A stretch of 64,000 nt of DNA, from the IMG/VR virus record IMGVR_UViG_3300025018_000100; one strand, 5' to 3'. Source of the stretch: a virus. Below, piece after piece: positions 1 through 61,137 of the stretch (within the stretch, counting starts at the first letter, position 1; every line of letters starts with the position of its first letter). The notes under the pieces were generated by a model that was given only the letters and a program-made list of their open reading frames with translations, was not told where the DNA came from and ran no database searches. Position numbers and translations under genes: made by a program.

Positions 1-3000
1 AACTATGATTAGAATTTGCTTTTATTTGTTCATTTTCTAACTGAGTTATAGTATTTTTAAATTCTTCTTCGTTTATCCCTATTTCTTTTCTTTTATTATC
101 TATCTTAATTTGTAATGCTGCGAGTTCTGCGGCATTTTCTCTGTTAAGATTTGATATCTTAATGTCGTTTAATTCTGCTTGTAATTTAGCTAATTCTCCT
201 ATATCAAGAATTTCATCTTGTATAGCTCTAGCTTTAAGAGACCTTAATTTGTCCTGAGTATTAGCTTCTTGTGTGGCTGCGTCTGCTTGAGTAGCTGCTA
301 AGTCCTTAGTAGCATTAATAGTACTATCTAATTGTTCAATAGAAGTTTTAATAGAAGAATTTAGTGAATCAATTTGTTCATCAAAATTAGCTACACTAAT
401 CAAACTAGGATTACTAGTTCCGTAGAATCCTGCTAATGTTTTAATAAATTCATTGAATATTCTAGCCAATTCAATAGGAAATTGAGTTAATGCTTGTATT
501 TCTTTCTGAACAGTCAATAATCTGGTTTTTTCTAATTCTAATGCAGCTAATTTATTAGTTTTATTAATATCAATTTCTTGTTTTTTTATAGCTAATTCTG
601 CGTCTGCTCTTATTTTTTCTTGATCTAATATATCTAATCTATTAATTAAATTTTTCTGTTCATTAATGCTTTTCTGCTCAGAAATTTGCTTCTCTCTTAA
701 TAAAAGAGCAGCTTTCTGGCTATTATCTTTAGCTTTAAAAGTTTTTTCCGCTTCTAAATTATCTATCTCTAGATTAATAATCCTAGATTCATTATCAAAT
801 TTTTTCTTTTCTGCTTCTATACGAAGATTAATTAGATTTAATTCTTTTTCTAAGTTACTAGCTGCTTGTTCTGCTATTAAATTTCTTCTATCTTCCCTAG
901 TACCAAAATTAGGAAAATTAGCTTGATTATCAGCAGTTCTCTGTAATCGTAAGTCTCTTAATAATGCAGCACGTTCTATTGCTAGTTCTTTTCCCTTTAG
1001 TTCTGTATCTAATAGTTTATTAGCTAAATTTAATTCTTCAACTTTATTTTCGTTTATTTGTTGTTGTTTTTTAAATTTAATATTTTGAGTTTCATTATAT
1101 GCCTTGCTTATATCTAAAAGAGCATTTTCTTTAGTTAGTAGAGCTTCTAAAGCTTTATTTCTATTATCATAAGCTTCTTGAGATAATAAAATATTATTAG
1201 ATAATTTTTGAATTTCTAATTTTTGCTTTTCAATATCTAATTGTTGTAAAGACTCCCTTAGTCTTTTTTCTTCAGCTATTGCAATTTTTTGTATTTCTTC
1301 TTTTGATTTTAGGAAAGCACCAAATAAAGCCTTTTCCGTAGTTTTTCGGAGATTTCCTAAGGCTACAATCTTAGCATTTTGTTCTAAATCTTTTTCTCCT
1401 CGACTAGCAGCTTCTTTTTGTAAAGCAGCGAGTTCTATTGATCCTTGTTTTGCTATATTAATAGCAGTTACTAAATTTTCTGCTTTGTTAGCAGCTATTT
1501 CAATACCATTTTCTGCAAATTTACCATTAAATAAGTTAATTATCCCAGAAGATTCTAAGTTATCTACTAAACTTATTTGGCTAGAAAAAGCTTTAGTAAT
1601 ATTTACAGATAATTGCTCAATAGCTTGAAGCTCTTGGGTTATTTTTCTTGCTTCTTTTCCTTGATCTTTAAGTCTATTTATAATAGCAACTAATTTAGGG
1701 TCTAACTCACCATATTCGTTAGTGTAGGCTTCTTGTAATTTAACTAATTCACTAGTGATAGTAGTTATTGCTGTAAGTTTTTGTGCTGCCTTCTCTGCAT
1801 CAAGAGAACCTGAAGCAAAAGAATCAGAGAAACTTTTACTTGCGTTTATGCTTTTACCTAACTCAGAAACTAAATTACCTACACCCGTTTTTAATTTGGG
1901 TAATCCTTTGTCGCTAATTTCAGAAATAGATGCTTGAATACCTCCAAAACCTATAGTAGCTACTTGATCATTAAATTTTATAAAACCTTGTAAAGCTAAA
2001 TCAGCTACTTGTTGAATAGGAATTCCAGCAGTTCTACTGATTTCTTCAATAATACCCGATAATTGAGTTTTACCAGATTCTAAATTTTTAACTGCTTCCT
2101 CCAAAGTAGCTACCTCTAATCGACTACTTCTTAATTCCTCTCCACTTAGTTTTGTTTGTTTATTTTTTAATCTAGTAATAGTTTGATTAAGTCTTTCTAT
2201 TTGATTTAAGACACCTAATCTTAGTACTTCTTCTTTACTTAAAGCCTGTGCCTGTTCAAATTGTTCTTTATTAGGTCTAAATTCATTTCTTCCTGCAAAA
2301 TTAGTTCCATTGTCTTTTGCTAATTGATTAGCAAATTGCTGTCTAATCCCAGAAGTGTTAGTTAATCCCTCAATAATTTGTTTATTTACATCAGAATATT
2401 TTTCCGCTAGTTTTTCTCTAGCCTCTCTATCTAAATCTAATTCTTTTGCTAACTTTTCTAAATTGCTATTTTTAGATATAAAAGTAGTAGCAGCTAAAGC
2501 TTGGGCTCCTTCTTTAGCTCTATCAATTTCTTCTGTTAAAGATTTGAAAAATTTAATTACGCTATCTAAAATATCTACACCAAATAAACTTGCGATAAAT
2601 TGAATAGTAGATCCTACAAGAAAAAACTTATTTGCTAAGGAAACTGCGGCACTAATTGCTAACCCTGTTCTTCTAAAAGCTGCACCAATAAAATCAGCTG
2701 ATCTAGCTATACCTTTAGATAGTCCAGAACTATTATTCATAACCGTATTTAGATTAATATAAGAAACCTCTAAAGCTTTAACTCTTCTTGTAGCTCTTTC
2801 AATACTTCTATTTGCTGCATCAATTTGTTCCTTAGTTCTTCCCTGTACAGTTAAATATTTTTGTTTAGTAGCGATAAACTTATTTTCTTGTTCAATTTGA
2901 GCTTTAATTAAAGGAGTTGTTTCTCTAATTTGTTGGTTAGTTAGAGAATCTGCGTTATCTATTAAGTTATTAAATTGACTGGGAGAGAGTTTACCTCCGA

Positions 3001-4996: not shown

Positions 4997-6256
4997 TTAC
5001 TTAACCGCAAAGATTGTTACTTCGTCACCATTACCACAGTTATCAACACTCTCTTGTGCCTGGAAAGCAGCAGAAACTGAAATCACATCCTCAATTGCAT
5101 GAGTTGGAAAATCGAATTGAACAGCTGGGTGGTAGAAAGCTACGTATGGAACACTTGTTCCACCAACCTGTAGGTTGGCATTAGCAGCAGTACTATGACT
5201 TACTCTGCTATCTTCAACAATATTCTTTAAGAATGTTGCTGATTGGGCAGTACCATGACGTAGATAAGCACTGAACGTACCACTAATTGTTCTGCTTCCG
5301 GCAAAATTACCGATAGGAGCATTAAGGGTAGATAATTCTTCTGGTGTTAAGTATGTAATATTGTTATTTAGACTCCAATTCATAGCAGTTACTGGGAATG
5401 TATAATTCACAGGAGAACCGCTAGCAGGTGTATGAAAAGCACTAAGAGTAGTAAGTCTATTCTTAATAAAACTTGCAGAAGCTATGCTTGATGCTACGTT
5501 ATAAGAATTCCAAGGCTGATAAGCGCTTTCTGCTGTTACAGCATATGCATTACTATTAGCACTAGTTTCTACTCCAGAATTAAGAACTCCACCGAATACA
5601 CTAACAGCGTTATTTCTAGGACCATTTCTTAGTTCAACTAAGTTAGTTCCAAAACCTGTCCAAGTAGTAGTAGCAATACTATCAATAGCGGAATCTACAG
5701 ATGCTTCATTAACCGCAGCATTAGATACCTGATAGTATACGTTATCCATAACAATATATAGATGATTTTCTTGAGCAACAGCGAAATTAGGTGTATGCGC
5801 TGCAACGTTAGCTGAAGCGACTCTAGATACACTACGGAAAATTCCGCCATTCTCCCAAACACTTTGTTCTTCTGATCCAACTGCAGGGGCTGTATTAGAT
5901 AAGGCAGCCTGCCATAAGAACCAATCAGCCACAGGTTTAGCATTAGATGTTGCAGATACACCATCCGTGTTAGCTTTTGTGTTTGTGATTCCTGTTGGTT
6001 TTAGATAGCATTGAAAATTCCATTCTACAGGGTTGATAGCAGTGTTAAATCTAGTTACAGCACGATCAGGAGTAAGACCACTTTCTAAAGTAGTAATATC
6101 CTGAGTAGCAGCAGCCTGAGATACGGCATAACCGGCTAATACTTCTACCTGCCAAGTGTTGGCAGGTACCATATCAGTTACGGGGTCGCCTGATGCTAAG
6201 TCAATAGTAGAATAGAAGATTTTGGTATTACGCTGTAAATTTAGATTGCAGCTCAT
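4997..6256 (-). CDS. Major tail tube protein (T5 pb6-like)
   Basis: LQRNTKIFYST, EVLAGY, FNTAINPVEWNF and NNITYLTPEEL...GSRTISG motifs resemble T5-type tail tube proteins; synteny. Confidence 0.9.
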   Translation of the reverse strand: MSCNLNLQRNTKIFYSTIDLASGDPVTDMVPANTWQVEVLAGYAVSQAAATQDITTLESGLTPDRAVTRFNTAINPVEWNFQCYLKPTGITNTKANTDGVSATSNAKPVADWFLWQAALSNTAPAVGSEEQSVWENGGIFRSVSRVASANVAAHTPNFAVAQENHLYIVMDNVYYQVSNAAVNEASVDSAIDSIATTTWTGFGTNLVELRNGPRNNAVSVFGGVLNSGVETSANSNAYAVTAESAYQPWNSYNVASSIASASFIKNRLTTLSAFHTPASGSPVNYTFPVTAMNWSLNNNITYLTPEELSTLNAPIGNFAGSRTISGTFSAYLRHGTAQSATFLKNIVEDSRVSHSTAANANLQVGGTSVPYVAFYHPAVQFDFPTHAIEDVISVSAAFQAQESVDNCGNGDEVTIFAVK

Positions 6257-6272
6257 TTAATAAACTCCTCTA

Positions 6273-6716
6273 TTAGCTCAAAACGTATTGAACACTTAAA
6301 ATTATTTCTCCAAAACCGTAAGGTTCTAATAGTCCCTCATCAGTAGAAATTGCGTCTATAGTTATATCTTCAATTCCTAATATTGGGCTATCAGTGAGAT
6401 TATAAATTACATGCTCTATATCGTCTATTACGTTTTGTAATTCGTTTTGAACATCACTGGACTTATGATATATTCTTAAGGTTATAGGGAGTCCAGCCTC
6501 CGTAAATTCCTGTGAATTATAGGTTCTGGTTTCTCTACCAGCAACAATATAAACAGAGGGAAAATCGTTGATACTATCAAAAAATTTAAAACCTCTATCT
6601 ACATTACCAAATAAATTACTATTATAAGTGTACGAACTGTCAAAAGACGATACCTGACCGTTAATTAACTTTAGTTCTGTAATTATTCTTGTAGTAATTT
6701 CTTTTCTTATACTCAT
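6273..6716 (-). CDS. Tail terminator protein (T5 p142-like)
   Basis: INDFPSV and ISTDEGLLEPYG motifs; directly upstream of the major tail protein. Confidence 0.8.
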   Translation of the reverse strand: MSIRKEITTRIITELKLINGQVSSFDSSYTYNSNLFGNVDRGFKFFDSINDFPSVYIVAGRETRTYNSQEFTEAGLPITLRIYHKSSDVQNELQNVIDDIEHVIYNLTDSPILGIEDITIDAISTDEGLLEPYGFGEIILSVQYVLS

Positions 6717-6771: not shown

Positions 6772-7917
6772 CTAAAACGTGGATTTAAATACTCTTACTT
6801 GCCCACCCGTAAGCCTACCTACTACTGTTCTAATACTACCTTCAATAGTATTTCTAGGGTCTCTGGATGTACTTTCATGAGAAAAGTAACGAGGGTTATA
6901 AAAATATTTAACAGCATTTAATTTTCTATCATAAAACACATCAATACTTCTTGCAAAAGTACCTGATCTATATGTTAGTATTTGTGCCGATAAAGGCGGG
7001 CCTCTTGGAGGACCTTTGGGCATTTTTAAAGTAACTGAAGCTCTTACTCTTCTTGTTAGTTCTGCATCCGATAACCTAGTCATTAAAGTATTAAAACTTT
7101 CATTAGCTGTTTGTACTATACTCTTATTTTGATTTTCTACTACAGCGTTAATATCAACATCATTTACTAAAGTATTTAGTCCAATTCTTATTGAAGAAGG
7201 CTTTAATGATATAATCTGCCCTATAAAGTCTAATTCTGATTTAGTTTTGTTTCTAAAAATAGTTATTACTTCGTCAGGATTACTTTCTAGAGTACGTTGT
7301 AAATTTATAATGACTTTATTTAATCCATTTCTTGACAAACTTAACTGAACTTTAACAATAACATTATTATCTTGTATGATTACATTTGTTAGTTTCATAT
7401 TAAAATCTCTTGCAGAGAATTTAATATTTGTAGCCGTAACTAGGAAATTAGAACCATCTGGAAATAATAAAGGTAAAGTTAGCATAGATAGTCTAGTTTG
7501 TAATTCTTTAGTTTTAATTAAGTCATTTATAAACTGAGTTTTACTACCTTGTATTCTTTTCTTAGCCTTAGAAATTAATAATGAAGTGTTATTAAAATCT
7601 GCCGGATTTTGCGATAAATCAGCAAAAGATTGTGTAGATTCTGAATTTAGTAATATTTGACCAGAATTAATAGGTAAATTATTATTTTTAAAAATTTCAT
7701 CGTTAATAGGTTTAATAAGAGGATTAGATTTAGAATTTTTAACATTGACTATTAGGTTACCTGTTTTTGCTTTCGCTCCAATACTTTTTCTTTTTAAAAA
7801 AGTAGAAACAGAACTAGTCATATTTTTATTGGCTAAAATACTATTAGATGATTTATCAATAGTGTCAAATAGATTTTTAGCTTCTTTAGTGTCGATACTT
7901 AATATAACAAAAGCCAT
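6772..7917 (-). CDS. Tail completion protein (T5 p143-like)
   Basis: C-terminal LTYRSGTFARS...RDPRNTIEGSIR motif; synteny. Confidence 0.65.
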   Translation of the reverse strand: MAFVILSIDTKEAKNLFDTIDKSSNSILANKNMTSSVSTFLKRKSIGAKAKTGNLIVNVKNSKSNPLIKPINDEIFKNNNLPINSGQILLNSESTQSFADLSQNPADFNNTSLLISKAKKRIQGSKTQFINDLIKTKELQTRLSMLTLPLLFPDGSNFLVTATNIKFSARDFNMKLTNVIIQDNNVIVKVQLSLSRNGLNKVIINLQRTLESNPDEVITIFRNKTKSELDFIGQIISLKPSSIRIGLNTLVNDVDINAVVENQNKSIVQTANESFNTLMTRLSDAELTRRVRASVTLKMPKGPPRGPPLSAQILTYRSGTFARSIDVFYDRKLNAVKYFYNPRYFSHESTSRDPRNTIEGSIRTVVGRLTGGQVRVFKSTF

Positions 7918-8540
7918 TACATTAATAATCTATACATTTCTAATATTCTTCTAATATGAGAAGGGAAATTAGCAGAAGTAGGAAATGAGGTTTTAGATTC
8001 TCCTTGAAAACTCATTGTCTCTGAACTACTTTCGTTCTTATGTAATAATTTTATATAATCTAAAGTTGCTAATTTTAAATCACTAGGTATAGTAATATAG
8101 CCGCCACCGTATACTACCTTTACACCCTTAGGGTAGTTATTAAACTTAGTATACTGACCTAGGTCTAAGTCAACAGTATAAGCCCTATTAGTTCTCACAA
8201 TTTCTCCAGTATCTTCATACCACATATATTCTATAGAGCCACTAGAACTCGATAAATTATTTGGTAAACTACCATCACTATTTGGCCCTGCTAAATTAGC
8301 ATAATCTGATCCATCGTATTCTGCAACTACAGTTACGTTATTAATAGGTATTCTTTTAACAAATACGGAAGGTAATCCACCGTTGTGATATTCTGTGTAA
8401 GTATTAGCAACTAATTCTCGACCACAGTATGTCTCTATAGCTTGAGAAGCATACTCAATTATATTTGAAAGTCTACCATCAGACTTCGTACTAGTTACTT
8501 CTAAATAATTTTTTACTTCCTCAAGACTAACTAAAGACAT
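7917..8540 (-). CDS. Head completion / head-tail connector protein
   Basis: LVSLEEVKNYL...IETYCGR...YGGGY.TIPSDLKLA...FPSHIRRILEMYR, a gp6/T5 p144-like pattern. Confidence 0.85.
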   Translation of the reverse strand: MSLVSLEEVKNYLEVTSTKSDGRLSNIIEYASQAIETYCGRELVANTYTEYHNGGLPSVFVKRIPINNVTVVAEYDGSDYANLAGPNSDGSLPNNLSSSSGSIEYMWYEDTGEIVRTNRAYTVDLDLGQYTKFNNYPKGVKVVYGGGYITIPSDLKLATLDYIKLLHKNESSSETMSFQGESKTSFPTSANFPSHIRRILEMYRLLM

Positions 8541-56496: not shown

Positions 56497-56722
56497 TTGT
56501 ATCTCCTAAGTAATTAGCTTAGAAAATACTCATTCCTTCATAAAACATTAAGATGCTCCTAATATAATTGGTACGAGAACAATTGCAAGTATTAATAGTG
56601 TTCCTATTGCTACGTATATTTCATACTTTATTTCGTCTGATAATCTTGCCCACTTTTTAATCACTTTTTAGTCCACCTTTAGAAAATGTTGGAGCAGGTT
56701 CATACTACTACTCCTTAGTATT

Positions 56723-57571
56723 TAAAAGGTTGAGATTACACCTTTTAGTGAGTTCCTCTTCAAACCGTACCCAAACTACTGCGATATAGTTGGTTAATTT
56801 GACATCCACAGGAAGTATTCCTGTAAGGCCCAAAGCCGCCTTTTAAAGAGTGGCATTTCTCTTAACACGTTATACTACTCATCGAGTCTATTGTCCGTCT
56901 GCTTCGCGAGCAGTTCAATTCCGCTAAGAATTTACGAAGTCTTCCTCGATAACACTCTTAACTTTGCGAGTTTTGAGTGCCCTCATTCTATACAGTGAGG
57001 GATTAGGCTTTTTTCGTACAACGCTGAAGTAGACTTTTGCGTTTTTAATTGGATAACAGGAGTCGAACCTGTGACTTTCTGTGTTGTAAACAGACGCTCT
57101 ACCTACTGAGCTATATCGCTAAAATCTACCGAGATGTGCTACTTCTTTGCTGCTTCGTATATTGTTAGATACGAAATACAACACACCTCCTGTTTTTCGG
57201 CTTGCGGCCTAATTAACCGTTTTTTCGGACAACGTCTCACTACAATAGCGTGAGCCATTCTCGTTAAAACTGCAACCCGCCCTTATGCGCTAACATTCGG
57301 ACTATTTGTTGCTATCCATCAGCTATACATAATAAGCAAGGTTGCGTATTAGATGAGAAGCTGCTACACACCTCTTAGTCCTCAGCGTTGCCCTGGACCT
57401 ATTCTCTTACGAGAACCTAATCTTGCCGTCTTACTTACCACCTAAATCAATAGATGGCCCCTCGCGGGGAAGCCTGGACTTTTATGGTGGGACCATTTCT
57501 GGCGAAAGTTAGTAGAATATACTTTCTTTAGACTACTTACGTAGTTTACCCCATACGACGCCATACCGCCA
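56723..57571 (-). ncRNA. GOLLD-like large ncRNA (~850 nt)
   Basis: ORF-free; 5' GGCGGTA...GTCGT...TAAACTACGTAAGTAG, internal GAGTAGTATAA, 3' AAGGTGTAATCTCAACCTT, matching GOLLD features as I recall them; phage tRNA-cluster context. Confidence 0.65.
57050..57119 (-). tRNA. Degenerate tRNA (Val-like) embedded in the GOLLD-like RNA
   Basis: TAGCTCAGTAGGTAGAGC D-arm and ACAGGTTCGACTCCTGT T-arm; aberrant anticodon loop and acceptor stem. Confidence 0.55.
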
Positions 57572-57909
57572 TTTTTTTAAATAATAGTTTTTATTTTGTA
57601 ATTAAACCCATTTTGGGCCTCGTTTTCTATATTAAAATATAGAAATTTGAATTAGGGAGAGGAAAGCCTCAACGTAGTGGGCTAAAAACGGAAGCTCTCA
57701 ACTCTATCCCTAAACTTGTAAGCAGAGATTTATATCTGCATGAATTAGTATAAGAGGTAAGTATTTAGGGACCGCCTCTTCTCGGTCTAAATTATAATAA
57801 ATGTGTATCGTAACTGTTTTTTATTATAAAGTAAGCAGAGTAAAGTCAATAATAGTTTATACTAAATCCGAAGTAACTACTATTTACGCAACTGCTATTA
57901 TTAATATTT

Positions 57910-58180
57910 CTTTTACCAAGCACTGGCCCCCAACACTCGCCGTACCTGCGAACACTCCACTTAACCACTGGTCGAAGCCAAGATAATGTGTCCTTTCCTT
58001 GTCAGTCTTTATTAGGCATTGACTTCCTTAATTAGGGGGTATTCATATCTACACTTATGAATACCTGTATCTTTCGCGGTGTAGTGCGCTTGAAATCTTG
58101 TTCAAGTCAAAGATAAGAGCGAAAAGCGATAAAAACTTATCTTTTACGTTTTTGGTCCGAAAACCTCACTCGCTTTTTTT
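57910..58180 (-). ncRNA. Unassigned structured RNA candidate
   Basis: Directly downstream of promoter 58191-58219; ORF-free on the minus strand; multiple stems. Confidence 0.4.
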
Positions 58181-59069
58181 ATTATTTCTAATTTTAACAA
58201 ACTTTTAAGTAACAAGCAAGTTAGAAGTTAAATTTTTTAATTACTAAAACATTCAGGATAGAACTCGTTTAAACTTTCAGAGTACCAATCCCAGTTATCA
58301 ACTCCACCCTTTTCTAGAGCTTCGAGCATCTTAGATGCATGAATTAGCCGGTCATACTCAGTTTTTGAAATAGTTACTGTTTCTTCGAGGCCCATATTAA
58401 TCTCTTCATCATTTTATAATTATAACAATAAATTAAGTAACAAGCAAGAATTAATTTAAATTTTTATAAGTCTCTTAATCCACATACGATAGGCTCTAGC
58501 CATAACAAAACCATTACGTTGTGTAATAAATTCTTCGTTTGTTTCTGTACCTTTTATTATTTTAAGGATTTGCTTGCCAGGTAGTGGATGCAAATGTATT
58601 ACTTGGGTTATTTATAATTACAAAGGATAGTATTAATAATACTAATAGTGTTCGCATAGTACTTCCTTTATTAAATATCTGCATTCTCTATCGTCATAGA
58701 GCGATACCTTGTTAATTCAAGGACCATAGTATGCTTCATTGAGAGGCAAGGGCAGATTTGTTTATGTTTTAGATTTTACATCTTCTTCAAGAGTATGCAT
58801 TCTTGTATAGAAATCAATAGGATTAACTATTTTAAAAACATAACATCCATCTTCTTGGACTTTTTCTAATGTTAATTCAGTAACTCCTACAAGAATTGTA
58901 TCGCCCACTTTAACTTCCGACATTTATTTACCCTTTCATATGTTTAACTCACTATAGTCTCGAAGTGATATTATTTAGATCAACACTCAAAGTATATCTT
59001 TCCAAATGATCAATACAACGATAAAATTACAAACTTTAAGATATCGGTAATAACTATAGTAAGTTAAAT

Positions 59070-59146
59070 TGGTTGCGGAAGTAGGATTTGAACCTACGTC
59101 CTTTAGCTTATGAGGCTAACGAGCTACCTGACTGCTCCATTCCGCG
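59070..59146 (-). tRNA. tRNA-Met(CAU), initiator-type acceptor
   Basis: CGCGGAATGGAGCAG...GGTAGCTCG...CTCATAA...GGTTCAAATCC...CCGCAACCA; C1:A72 mismatch. Confidence 0.88.
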
Positions 59147-59305: not shown

Positions 59306-59614
59306 TTAGATACGGCTCACGATTTCTGAGAGTTTTACTAATTTTACTCTATCTGGATATTTTTTAAAAAGAGCGTCCCATATAGGAGAAATATTCATTC
59401 TCATTATTTCAGAATTTTTATTAAGACAATATATAGAACCTGAATAACCTTCAACATAATAATAATCATTGTTTTCGGTAATTTTTTTAATACCAGAATT
59501 AACTCTCCAACTATTCCCATAAAGATACCCACCAGACCAGCCAGCTAGTATTTTATAGACTACTACATCATCTTCTTTAACCGAAAAGACAACCCAGTTA
59601 TCTGGTGTTTCCAT
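59306..59614 (-). CDS. Hypothetical phage protein
   Basis: PDNWV...YKILAGWSGGYL.G.SWR.NSGI...G.SGS.Y motif. Confidence 0.8.
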   Translation of the reverse strand: METPDNWVVFSVKEDDVVVYKILAGWSGGYLYGNSWRVNSGIKKITENNDYYYVEGYSGSIYCLNKNSEIMRMNISPIWDALFKKYPDRVKLVKLSEIVSRI

Positions 59615-60750: not shown

Positions 60751-60827
60751 TGGTGGAATGAGTAGGGATTACACCTACGACCTCTTTGTTTAACCAAAGC
60801 GCTCTCTTATTGCTGAGCTACCATACC
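60751..60827 (-). tRNA. Degenerate tRNA-like RNA
   Basis: TAGCTCAG D-arm, CTTTG-GTTAAA-CAAAG (6-nt loop), TGTAATC T-loop, CCA end. Confidence 0.55.
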
Positions 60828-61061: not shown

Positions 61062-61137
61062 TGGTGTTTCAGGTGGGACTTTAACCCACACGCGAAACGC
61101 TTTAGAGGCGCCTGCTCTAATATTGAGCTACTGAAAC
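61062..61137 (-). tRNA. tRNA with CUA anticodon (amber suppressor)
   Basis: Perfect GTTTCAG/CTGAAAC acceptor plus ACCA; GGCGC-CTCTAAA-GCGTT anticodon arm; own promoter at 61169-61197. Confidence 0.7.

Follow-up and report, generated by a model that had tools for sequence, protein, structure and literature searches.

A GOLLD RNA of an aquifer T5-like phage contains a tRNA-like insert with an eroded acceptor stem

The window analyzed in this study is a single stretch of viral DNA of 64,000 nucleotides (IMG/VR record IMGVR_UViG_3300025018_000100). An earlier note, made from its sequence alone, had described an open reading frame (ORF)-free region of ∼850 nt at positions 56723-57571 as a GOLLD-like giant noncoding RNA with a degenerate tRNA embedded in its middle. 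GOLLD RNA is a family that is reportedly to be credited to Weinberg et al. (2009). The locus raises the question of why a large phage RNA holds a tRNA-shaped element that seems unable to decode: the element might be a stored tRNA, a decaying relic, a signal for processing, or a part of the RNA that is maintained for something other than decoding.

A full-length GOLLD RNA within a phage RNA island

A search with the Rfam GOLLD model (RF02032) returned a significant match at 56727-57189 on the minus strand (188.1 bits versus a gathering score of 150; E = 2.2e-51). The match spans model positions 1-416 of 416, that is, the whole model, which represents the conserved 3′ domain of GOLLD only. Since it is both significant and full length, the locus is a GOLLD, and not the new large-RNA candidate that the earlier note, which gave no strand, had kept as an alternative. 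Upstream of this domain, a variable 5′ domain of ∼380 nt (57190-57571, minus strand) was recognized by nhmmer homology to other GOLLD loci (L100, E = 3.8e-12; L035, E = 9.6e-10; L094, E = 7e-6). The confident alignment starts at GGCGGUAUGGC (∼57570-57571), and L035 aligned with positions 6-854 of the 854-nt query, i.e., with nearly the whole RNA. The Rfam match of the 3′ domain and the homologous 5′ domain together define an RNA of ∼845 nt extending from 56727 to ∼57571 on the minus strand (5′ end approximate), with metatranscriptome contigs lying between 56750 and 57554; its coordinates agree with those originally proposed. In line with the GOLLD-like terminal motifs of the earlier note, 56727-56746(-) carries the 3′ terminal motif AAAAGGUGUAAUCUCAACCU and matches the conserved GOLLD 3′ terminal hairpin motif AAAAGGuGUAAUCUCAgcCU. 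No ORF of >41 aa overlaps 56708-57564 on either strand, and a scan for promoters and terminators at the GOLLD ends revealed nothing convincing.

With its CM score, 3′ motif, long-range helix, large 5′ domain, and phage location near tRNAs, the full-length RNA at 56727-57571(-) can be assigned to the known GOLLD family. It has in common with the GOLLDs of RF02032 the 3′-domain model, the large variable 5′ domain, the phage site beside tRNAs, and a tRNA-type insert in the linker that follows the first 3′-domain hairpin. However, it has diverged strongly in sequence (the closest relative found can be aligned by profile only), and its insert is without a functional acceptor end.

The structural genes of the window code for large terminase, portal, protease/major head fusion, major tail, and tape-measure proteins, and the terminase shares ∼40% identity with its counterparts from T5-like Serratia, Pectobacterium, and Erwinia phages. 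Judged by these genes, the GOLLD-bearing DNA is that of a tailed phage, a distant T5-like siphovirus. The phage is uncultivated; the window DNA was found in public aquifer metagenome runs. A megablast search of 40000-64000 against 50,697 phage records gave no match, and blastn of the GOLLD matched only tRNA-sized or first-hairpin-sized pieces.

The GOLLD belongs to a run of RNA genes on the minus strand (55.9-61.2 kb) and would be transcribed from this strand within an island of tRNAs and other noncoding RNAs. The same strand encodes a tRNA-Met (59070-59146), a weak tRNA recognized by Rfam with 35.8 bits but not called by ARAGORN (60754-60827), and a tRNA with anticodon CUA and an encoded CCA (61062-61137), which ARAGORN labeled as "Pyl." The anticodon region of the weak tRNA, CUUUG-GUUAAA-CAAAG, forms a 6-nt loop with UUA, and this element may represent another tRNA of aberrant or suppressor-like type. 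The anticodon CUA is of the amber-suppressor type, which prompted us to consider stop codon recoding. This was rejected, since TAG serves as stop in 6 of the 47 long ORFs and table 11 gives intact long structural genes; the phage thus shows no evidence of recoding. About 550 nt downstream of the GOLLD, a manA-type RNA (RF01745; 55967-56175, minus strand) matched the full model (positions 1-192) near threshold (55.0 bits versus a gathering score of 55.2; E = 4e-12). An ORF of 102 aa without a PHROG match (59306-59614, minus strand) shows 39% identity in two other phage contigs, where its relatives sit in tRNA/GOLLD islands as well (L035, 4704-4970; L095, 8932-9204). The ∼1.5 kb between the GOLLD and tRNA-Met (57572-59069) contained no ORF of >61 aa on either strand, no Rfam match, and no nhmmer match in other GOLLD loci; this segment possibly represents another unclassified RNA or small genes. 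The GOLLD/tRNA islands of three compared loci also include tmRNA genes, one of them permuted (L064, 2638-2985, minus strand; L093, 995-1393, plus strand; L098, 3984-4136, minus strand).

The tRNA-like insert and closure of its linker

The insert was located in the GOLLD linker at 57049-57120(-) by the Rfam tRNA model and a cloverleaf scan. The Rfam match (57052-57117, minus strand; 56.5 bits; E = 1.6e-9) is local and covers model positions 4-67 of 71, and the cloverleaf scan found 14 of 14 pairs in the core and 4 of 7 in the acceptor. Pairing is perfect in the D arm (GCUC-AGUAGGUA-GAGC, 57096-57111), the anticodon arm (UCUGU-UUACAAC-ACAGA, 57078-57094), and the T arm (ACAGG-UUCGACU-CCUGU, 57056-57072), all on the minus strand. 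The nucleotides that make the elbow and tertiary contacts of the L shape are present (U8, A14, G18, G19, U54, U55, C56, and A58); positions 8 and 9 are UA, position 26 is G, and the variable region reads AAGUC. The anticodon loop, UUACAAC, comprises 7 nt with U33 and a purine (A37) and displays the anticodon ACA (57085-57087, minus strand). To our knowledge, ACA is not a normal bacterial anticodon, A34 being abnormal in bacteria outside tRNA-Arg.

The acceptor is what sets the element apart from a canonical tRNA. Its strands, AGCGAUA on the 5′ side and UAUCCAA on the 3′ side, read directly from the sequence, form only a 4-bp remnant (GAUA/UAUC, pairs 4 to 7; 57114-57117 with 57052-57055, minus strand), while pairs 1-72, 2-71, and 3-70 are the mismatches A.A, G.A, and C.C. 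No CCA is encoded after the insert. Instead, both the sequence and the Rfam GOLLD alignment place there an A-rich stretch of 11 nt, CAAUUAAAAAC (57041-57051, minus strand), which interrupts the 3′ acceptor strand and continues into the conserved GOLLD motif AAAAAnGCAAAAG (also given as AAAAACGCAAAAG). A GC beyond this stretch could extend the acceptor helix, but only across the intervening 11 nt. Such a bulged 7-bp acceptor (UAUC...GC) is conceivable on paper only, with no known processing route, and was dropped. ARAGORN did not call the insert as a tRNA and at a relaxed threshold gave only an aberrant, nonstandard 86-nt fold. The insert therefore has the arms, loop, and elbow of a canonical tRNA but neither a 7-bp acceptor with a CCA-addable end nor recognition by a gene finder. 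Since three acceptor pairs are lost, CCA is missing, and the anticodon is ACA, the insert cannot be a normal aminoacylated decoder. Both the tRNA-like fold with an interrupted acceptor strand, proposed in the earlier note at 57050-57119, and its apparent inability to decode normally were borne out by these data.

Closure of the linker probably differs from what had been proposed. The first hairpin of the 3′ domain, here labeled P14 (57131-57189, minus strand; model positions 1-63 in the Rfam alignment), contains an internal loop, and comparison of 12 GOLLDs with a linker insert revealed that a strand in this loop (GAAGUAG, 57139-57145, minus strand) pairs with CUACUUC (57026-57032, minus strand), which directly follows the conserved GCAAAAG motif at the end of the linker. 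This long-range pairing, here labeled helix b, is complete (7 of 7 pairs) in all 12 GOLLDs, and 11 different strand sequences occur among them. The mean number of pairs was 7.0 of 7 for own partners versus 4.1 for crossed partners. The conserved closure of the linker is thus helix b. In contrast, the earlier note had the acceptor extended by an outer helix between GGUAGAUUUU (57121-57130, minus strand) and AAAAGUCUAC (57029-57038, minus strand). These strands are indeed complementary, and they dominate the minimum-free-energy fold of the isolated segment (-27.9 kcal/mol; z = -3.3). Across the 12 GOLLDs, however, the outer helix averaged 4.7 of 7 pairs versus 4.2 for mismatched partners and exhibited no covariation. 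Its 3′ strand shares 4 nt with helix b, whose pairing is perfect and covarying in 12 of 12 GOLLDs. The outer helix therefore probably does not provide the native closure, and comparison of the sequences suggests that it is at best a lineage-specific alternative. When the helix b strand was removed before folding, the insert was closed by GCG/CGC plus AUUUU/AAAGU, and the 4-bp acceptor remnant was not formed. Kissing contacts between the anticodon loops and other GOLLD segments were also considered and dropped, as we found only AU-rich complementarities of 5 to 7 nt at inconsistent places.

Contigs from four aquifer metatranscriptome runs (X2 to X5), each from another study, matched the GOLLD with 100% identity: 56755-57292 (538 nt) and 57369-57554 in X2, 56750-56917 and 57085-57325 in X3, 57069-57269 in X4, and 56795-56979 in X5. 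The 538-nt contig extends beyond the insert by >170 nt on either side, and contigs from X3 and X4 cross the 5′ end of the insert. A form in which GOLLD and insert are joined is present in RNA libraries. Such contigs reveal neither strand nor ends nor level, and DNA may be carried over into RNA libraries, so excision from some molecules is still conceivable. In the 14 kb compared, the four RNA runs gave no pieces of >22 nt outside 56750-57554, which is not proof of selective expression.

Inserts in related GOLLDs

A 16-mer scan of viral contigs gave 90 stretches, 4 of which were GOLLD and the others chance matches; three viral-contig GOLLDs were confirmed by Rfam. The 3′ terminal 20-mer retrieved 21 metagenome stretches, of which 20 were scanned and 12 scored at or above the GOLLD gathering score, the remaining ones being below it, cut off, or not GOLLD-like. 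As the 12 lineages compared share one exact 20-nt 3′ motif, which was the retrieval key, they sample one part of the family. These GOLLDs have diverged to the point that their 3′ domains are barely alignable by BLAST. Three GOLLDs (L093, L107, and L091) lack an insert and have short, AU-rich, unstructured linkers, whereas the other GOLLDs compared carry a tRNA-type insert at the same linker position. One metagenome contig, L096, apparently contains two GOLLDs, at 6215-6668(+) and ∼7600-8045(+). Of these, one exceeds the Rfam threshold; the second was recognized by its 3′ motif and has an Arg(UCU)-type tRNA embedded at 7627-7698.

Among ∼200 Rfam tRNA matches listed, all 7 that were locally aligned were GOLLD inserts. 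The match covered model positions 4-67 in the window, L094, and L102, 3-68 in L064/L101, and 7-64 in L016 and L095, the last two having no 3′ acceptor strand at all. In contrast, the free-standing tRNAs among these matches all aligned over positions 1-71. An alignment of 12 inserts revealed that loss of pairing is concentrated in the acceptor: paired cells amounted to 100% in the D arm, 98% in the anticodon arm, and 93% in the T arm versus 61% in the acceptor, where pair 1 is formed in 4, pair 2 in 5, and pair 3 in 6 of the 12 inserts. Changes on both sides were seen in 11 of the 14 arm pairs, and G10, A14, G18, G19, C25, the G53-equivalent, U, C56, A58, and C61 were invariant. As a control, elements from all loci were picked solely for perfect arms. 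A complete acceptor (7 of 7 pairs) was present in none of 8 embedded elements versus 61 of 78 free ones (Mann-Whitney P = 3.6e-6), a contrast that is conservative because several of the low values among the free elements are register errors of the scanner. The same pattern was found within a single cluster (L035, L102, and L094), in which anticodon and D stems vary by compensatory changes while the acceptor drops from 6 to 4 pairs.

The nearest insert to that of the window is found in L098, with 82% of the core positions outside the loop being identical. The anticodon stem UCUGU/ACAGA is common to the window, L098, and L100, and the loops are UUACAAC, an 8-nt loop, and AUUUACA, respectively; in these three, loops drift while stems stay. 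The loop of L100 corresponds to UUA with C37. Inserts with 8-nt anticodon loops are located at 1485-1557(-) in L098 and at 477-548(-) in L108, the latter having a 6-nt T loop in addition. Lys-type loops (UUU or CUU) were present in 6 of the 12 aligned inserts, from at least 4 separate clusters. The idea of a single ancestral tRNA-Lys was examined by core identity, and the neighbors of the inserts were found intermixed with free tRNAs. GOLLDs with intact inserts, such as L035 with tRNA-Lys(UUU) and a Mycolicibacterium GOLLD with tRNA-Phe, resemble the window in linker position and in D-arm and T-arm consensus, but have 6 to 7 acceptor pairs and standard anticodons, compared to 4 pairs and ACA in the window.

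We considered whether the insert might be a neutral relic, i.e., a once-functional linker tRNA in decay that acts only as linker filler. The existence of insert-free GOLLDs and the aberrant anticodon loops of several lineages are compatible with such a relic, and the graded erosion of the acceptor (6, 5, 4, and 2 pairs) can be read as ongoing decay. Decay should, however, strike all four helices, whereas in these highly diverged GOLLDs pairing is kept at 93 to 100% in three arms, compensatory changes are numerous, and the elbow nucleotides do not vary. We therefore regard a neutral relic as unlikely. The pattern of conservation suggests instead that selection maintains the body of the insert for a purpose other than decoding.

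Possible roles of the insert

The reading that we consider probable is a full-length GOLLD that carries a tethered, nondecoding tRNA look-alike. The tRNA-derived module in the linker would keep the L-shaped body, with D, anticodon, and T arms and the elbow nucleotides, and would most likely stay covalently tethered within GOLLD. The loop that holds it would be closed by helix b, between the internal loop of P14 and the segment after GCAAAAG. The look-alike might bind a tRNA-recognizing factor of the host or the phage, or might only stabilize the fold; of the roles suggested in the earlier note, a structural or decoy role appears plausible.

Two further explanations survive less well than that of a relic. 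Very unlikely, in our opinion, is that the tRNA-like body acts as a processing signal at which RNase P (possibly RNase Z) nicks the precursor while helix b holds the halves together: the insert largely retains the T/D elbow and the acceptor/T stack recognized by RNase P, but there are only 4 acceptor pairs before the expected cleavage site and contigs from three RNA runs span the 5′ junction. Least probable of all is that the insert functions as a phage tRNA (nominally tRNA-Cys, anticodon ACA) that is stored by GOLLD and released by RNase P and 3′ processing to serve in translation, since the Rfam score of 56.5 bits, the perfect D, anticodon, and T arms, the 7-nt loop with U33 and A37, and the ARAGORN-callable inserts of related GOLLDs (Lys-UUU in L035 and Asp-GUC in L064) are set against three consecutive acceptor mismatches without CCA, the missing ARAGORN call, an A34 anticodon that is abnormal in bacteria outside tRNA-Arg, RNA contigs bridging both insert junctions, and recurrent acceptor loss in independent GOLLDs, up to the missing 3′ strand in L016 and L095. 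The idea of storage as such is in print (PMC12990946), and release of a usable tRNA is possible in the lineages with near-intact inserts of 6 of 7 acceptor pairs (L035, L096, L100, and L098).

How a tethered look-alike might be presented is suggested by the GOLLDs with solved structures. Cryo-electron microscopy revealed a 14-mer for env-38 GOLLD and a 12-mer for Streptococcus agalactiae GOLLD, the only two for which self-assembly into a symmetric RNA-only cage is known (PMC12286853, PMC12990946), and the linker, sometimes with tRNAs, lies inside the cage (PMC12286853). By analogy, the RNA of the window, a divergent member to which cage and interior linker are transferred from these two structures, most likely self-assembles into a 10- to 14-mer cage with its linker pointing inward. 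A cage with an interior linker would display the look-alike in multiple copies inside.

That tRNAs reside in GOLLD linkers is already known, and a pseudo-tRNA in GOLLD has been reported as well. The Mycolicibacterium tRNA-Phe is located in J13/15, according to work cited in PMC12990946, and the earlier note's statement that some linkers contain tRNAs and that the function of GOLLD is unknown agrees with the two cage studies (PMC12286853, PMC12990946). The GOLLD of Mycobacterium aubagnense contains a nested pseudo-tRNA for which no separate RNA was detected (Behra et al. 2019, PMC6582537). Like the window, it combines a predicted nonfunctional tRNA in GOLLD with a location in a tRNA cluster, and the lack of separate expression there has its counterpart in the RNA contigs that bridge the insert here; host phylum and GOLLD subfamily are different, and that study contains no comparative analysis of the tRNA parts that are retained. 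The contrast between kept arms and an eroded acceptor appears to be new, as it is apparently not stated in the literature searched, and it applies to one subfamily defined by a single 3′ motif.

Taken by itself, the locus is nothing unusual for this known family, to which it adds one divergent GOLLD from an aquifer T5-like phage. Folds of tRNA shape that serve recognition rather than decoding are found in other large RNAs, such as the tRNA-like domain of tmRNA and the 3′ tRNA-like structures (TLS) of plant viruses. Both keep a chargeable acceptor end, whereas the insert of the window has lost this end and kept the anticodon arm. Conservation of the tRNA body with compensatory changes, together with an eroded acceptor in 12 lineages, argues against linker tRNAs as merely stored decoders. 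We tentatively put forward, as a possibility about which we have considerable doubt, that linker inserts in general are selected tRNA mimics and not stored tRNA genes, with a chargeable end that is dispensable.

The function of GOLLD has long been debated as a question of its own, and with the cage structures interest has turned to the contents of the interior. If linker inserts were indeed selected mimics, each cage would display 10 to 14 tethered tRNA look-alikes on its inside, and these could capture or occupy a host anticodon nuclease, a modification enzyme, or the ribosome. Lys-type loops would fit a bait for Lys-tRNA-directed defenses, with the qualification that the inserts may share ancestry and that the loop of the window has ACA.
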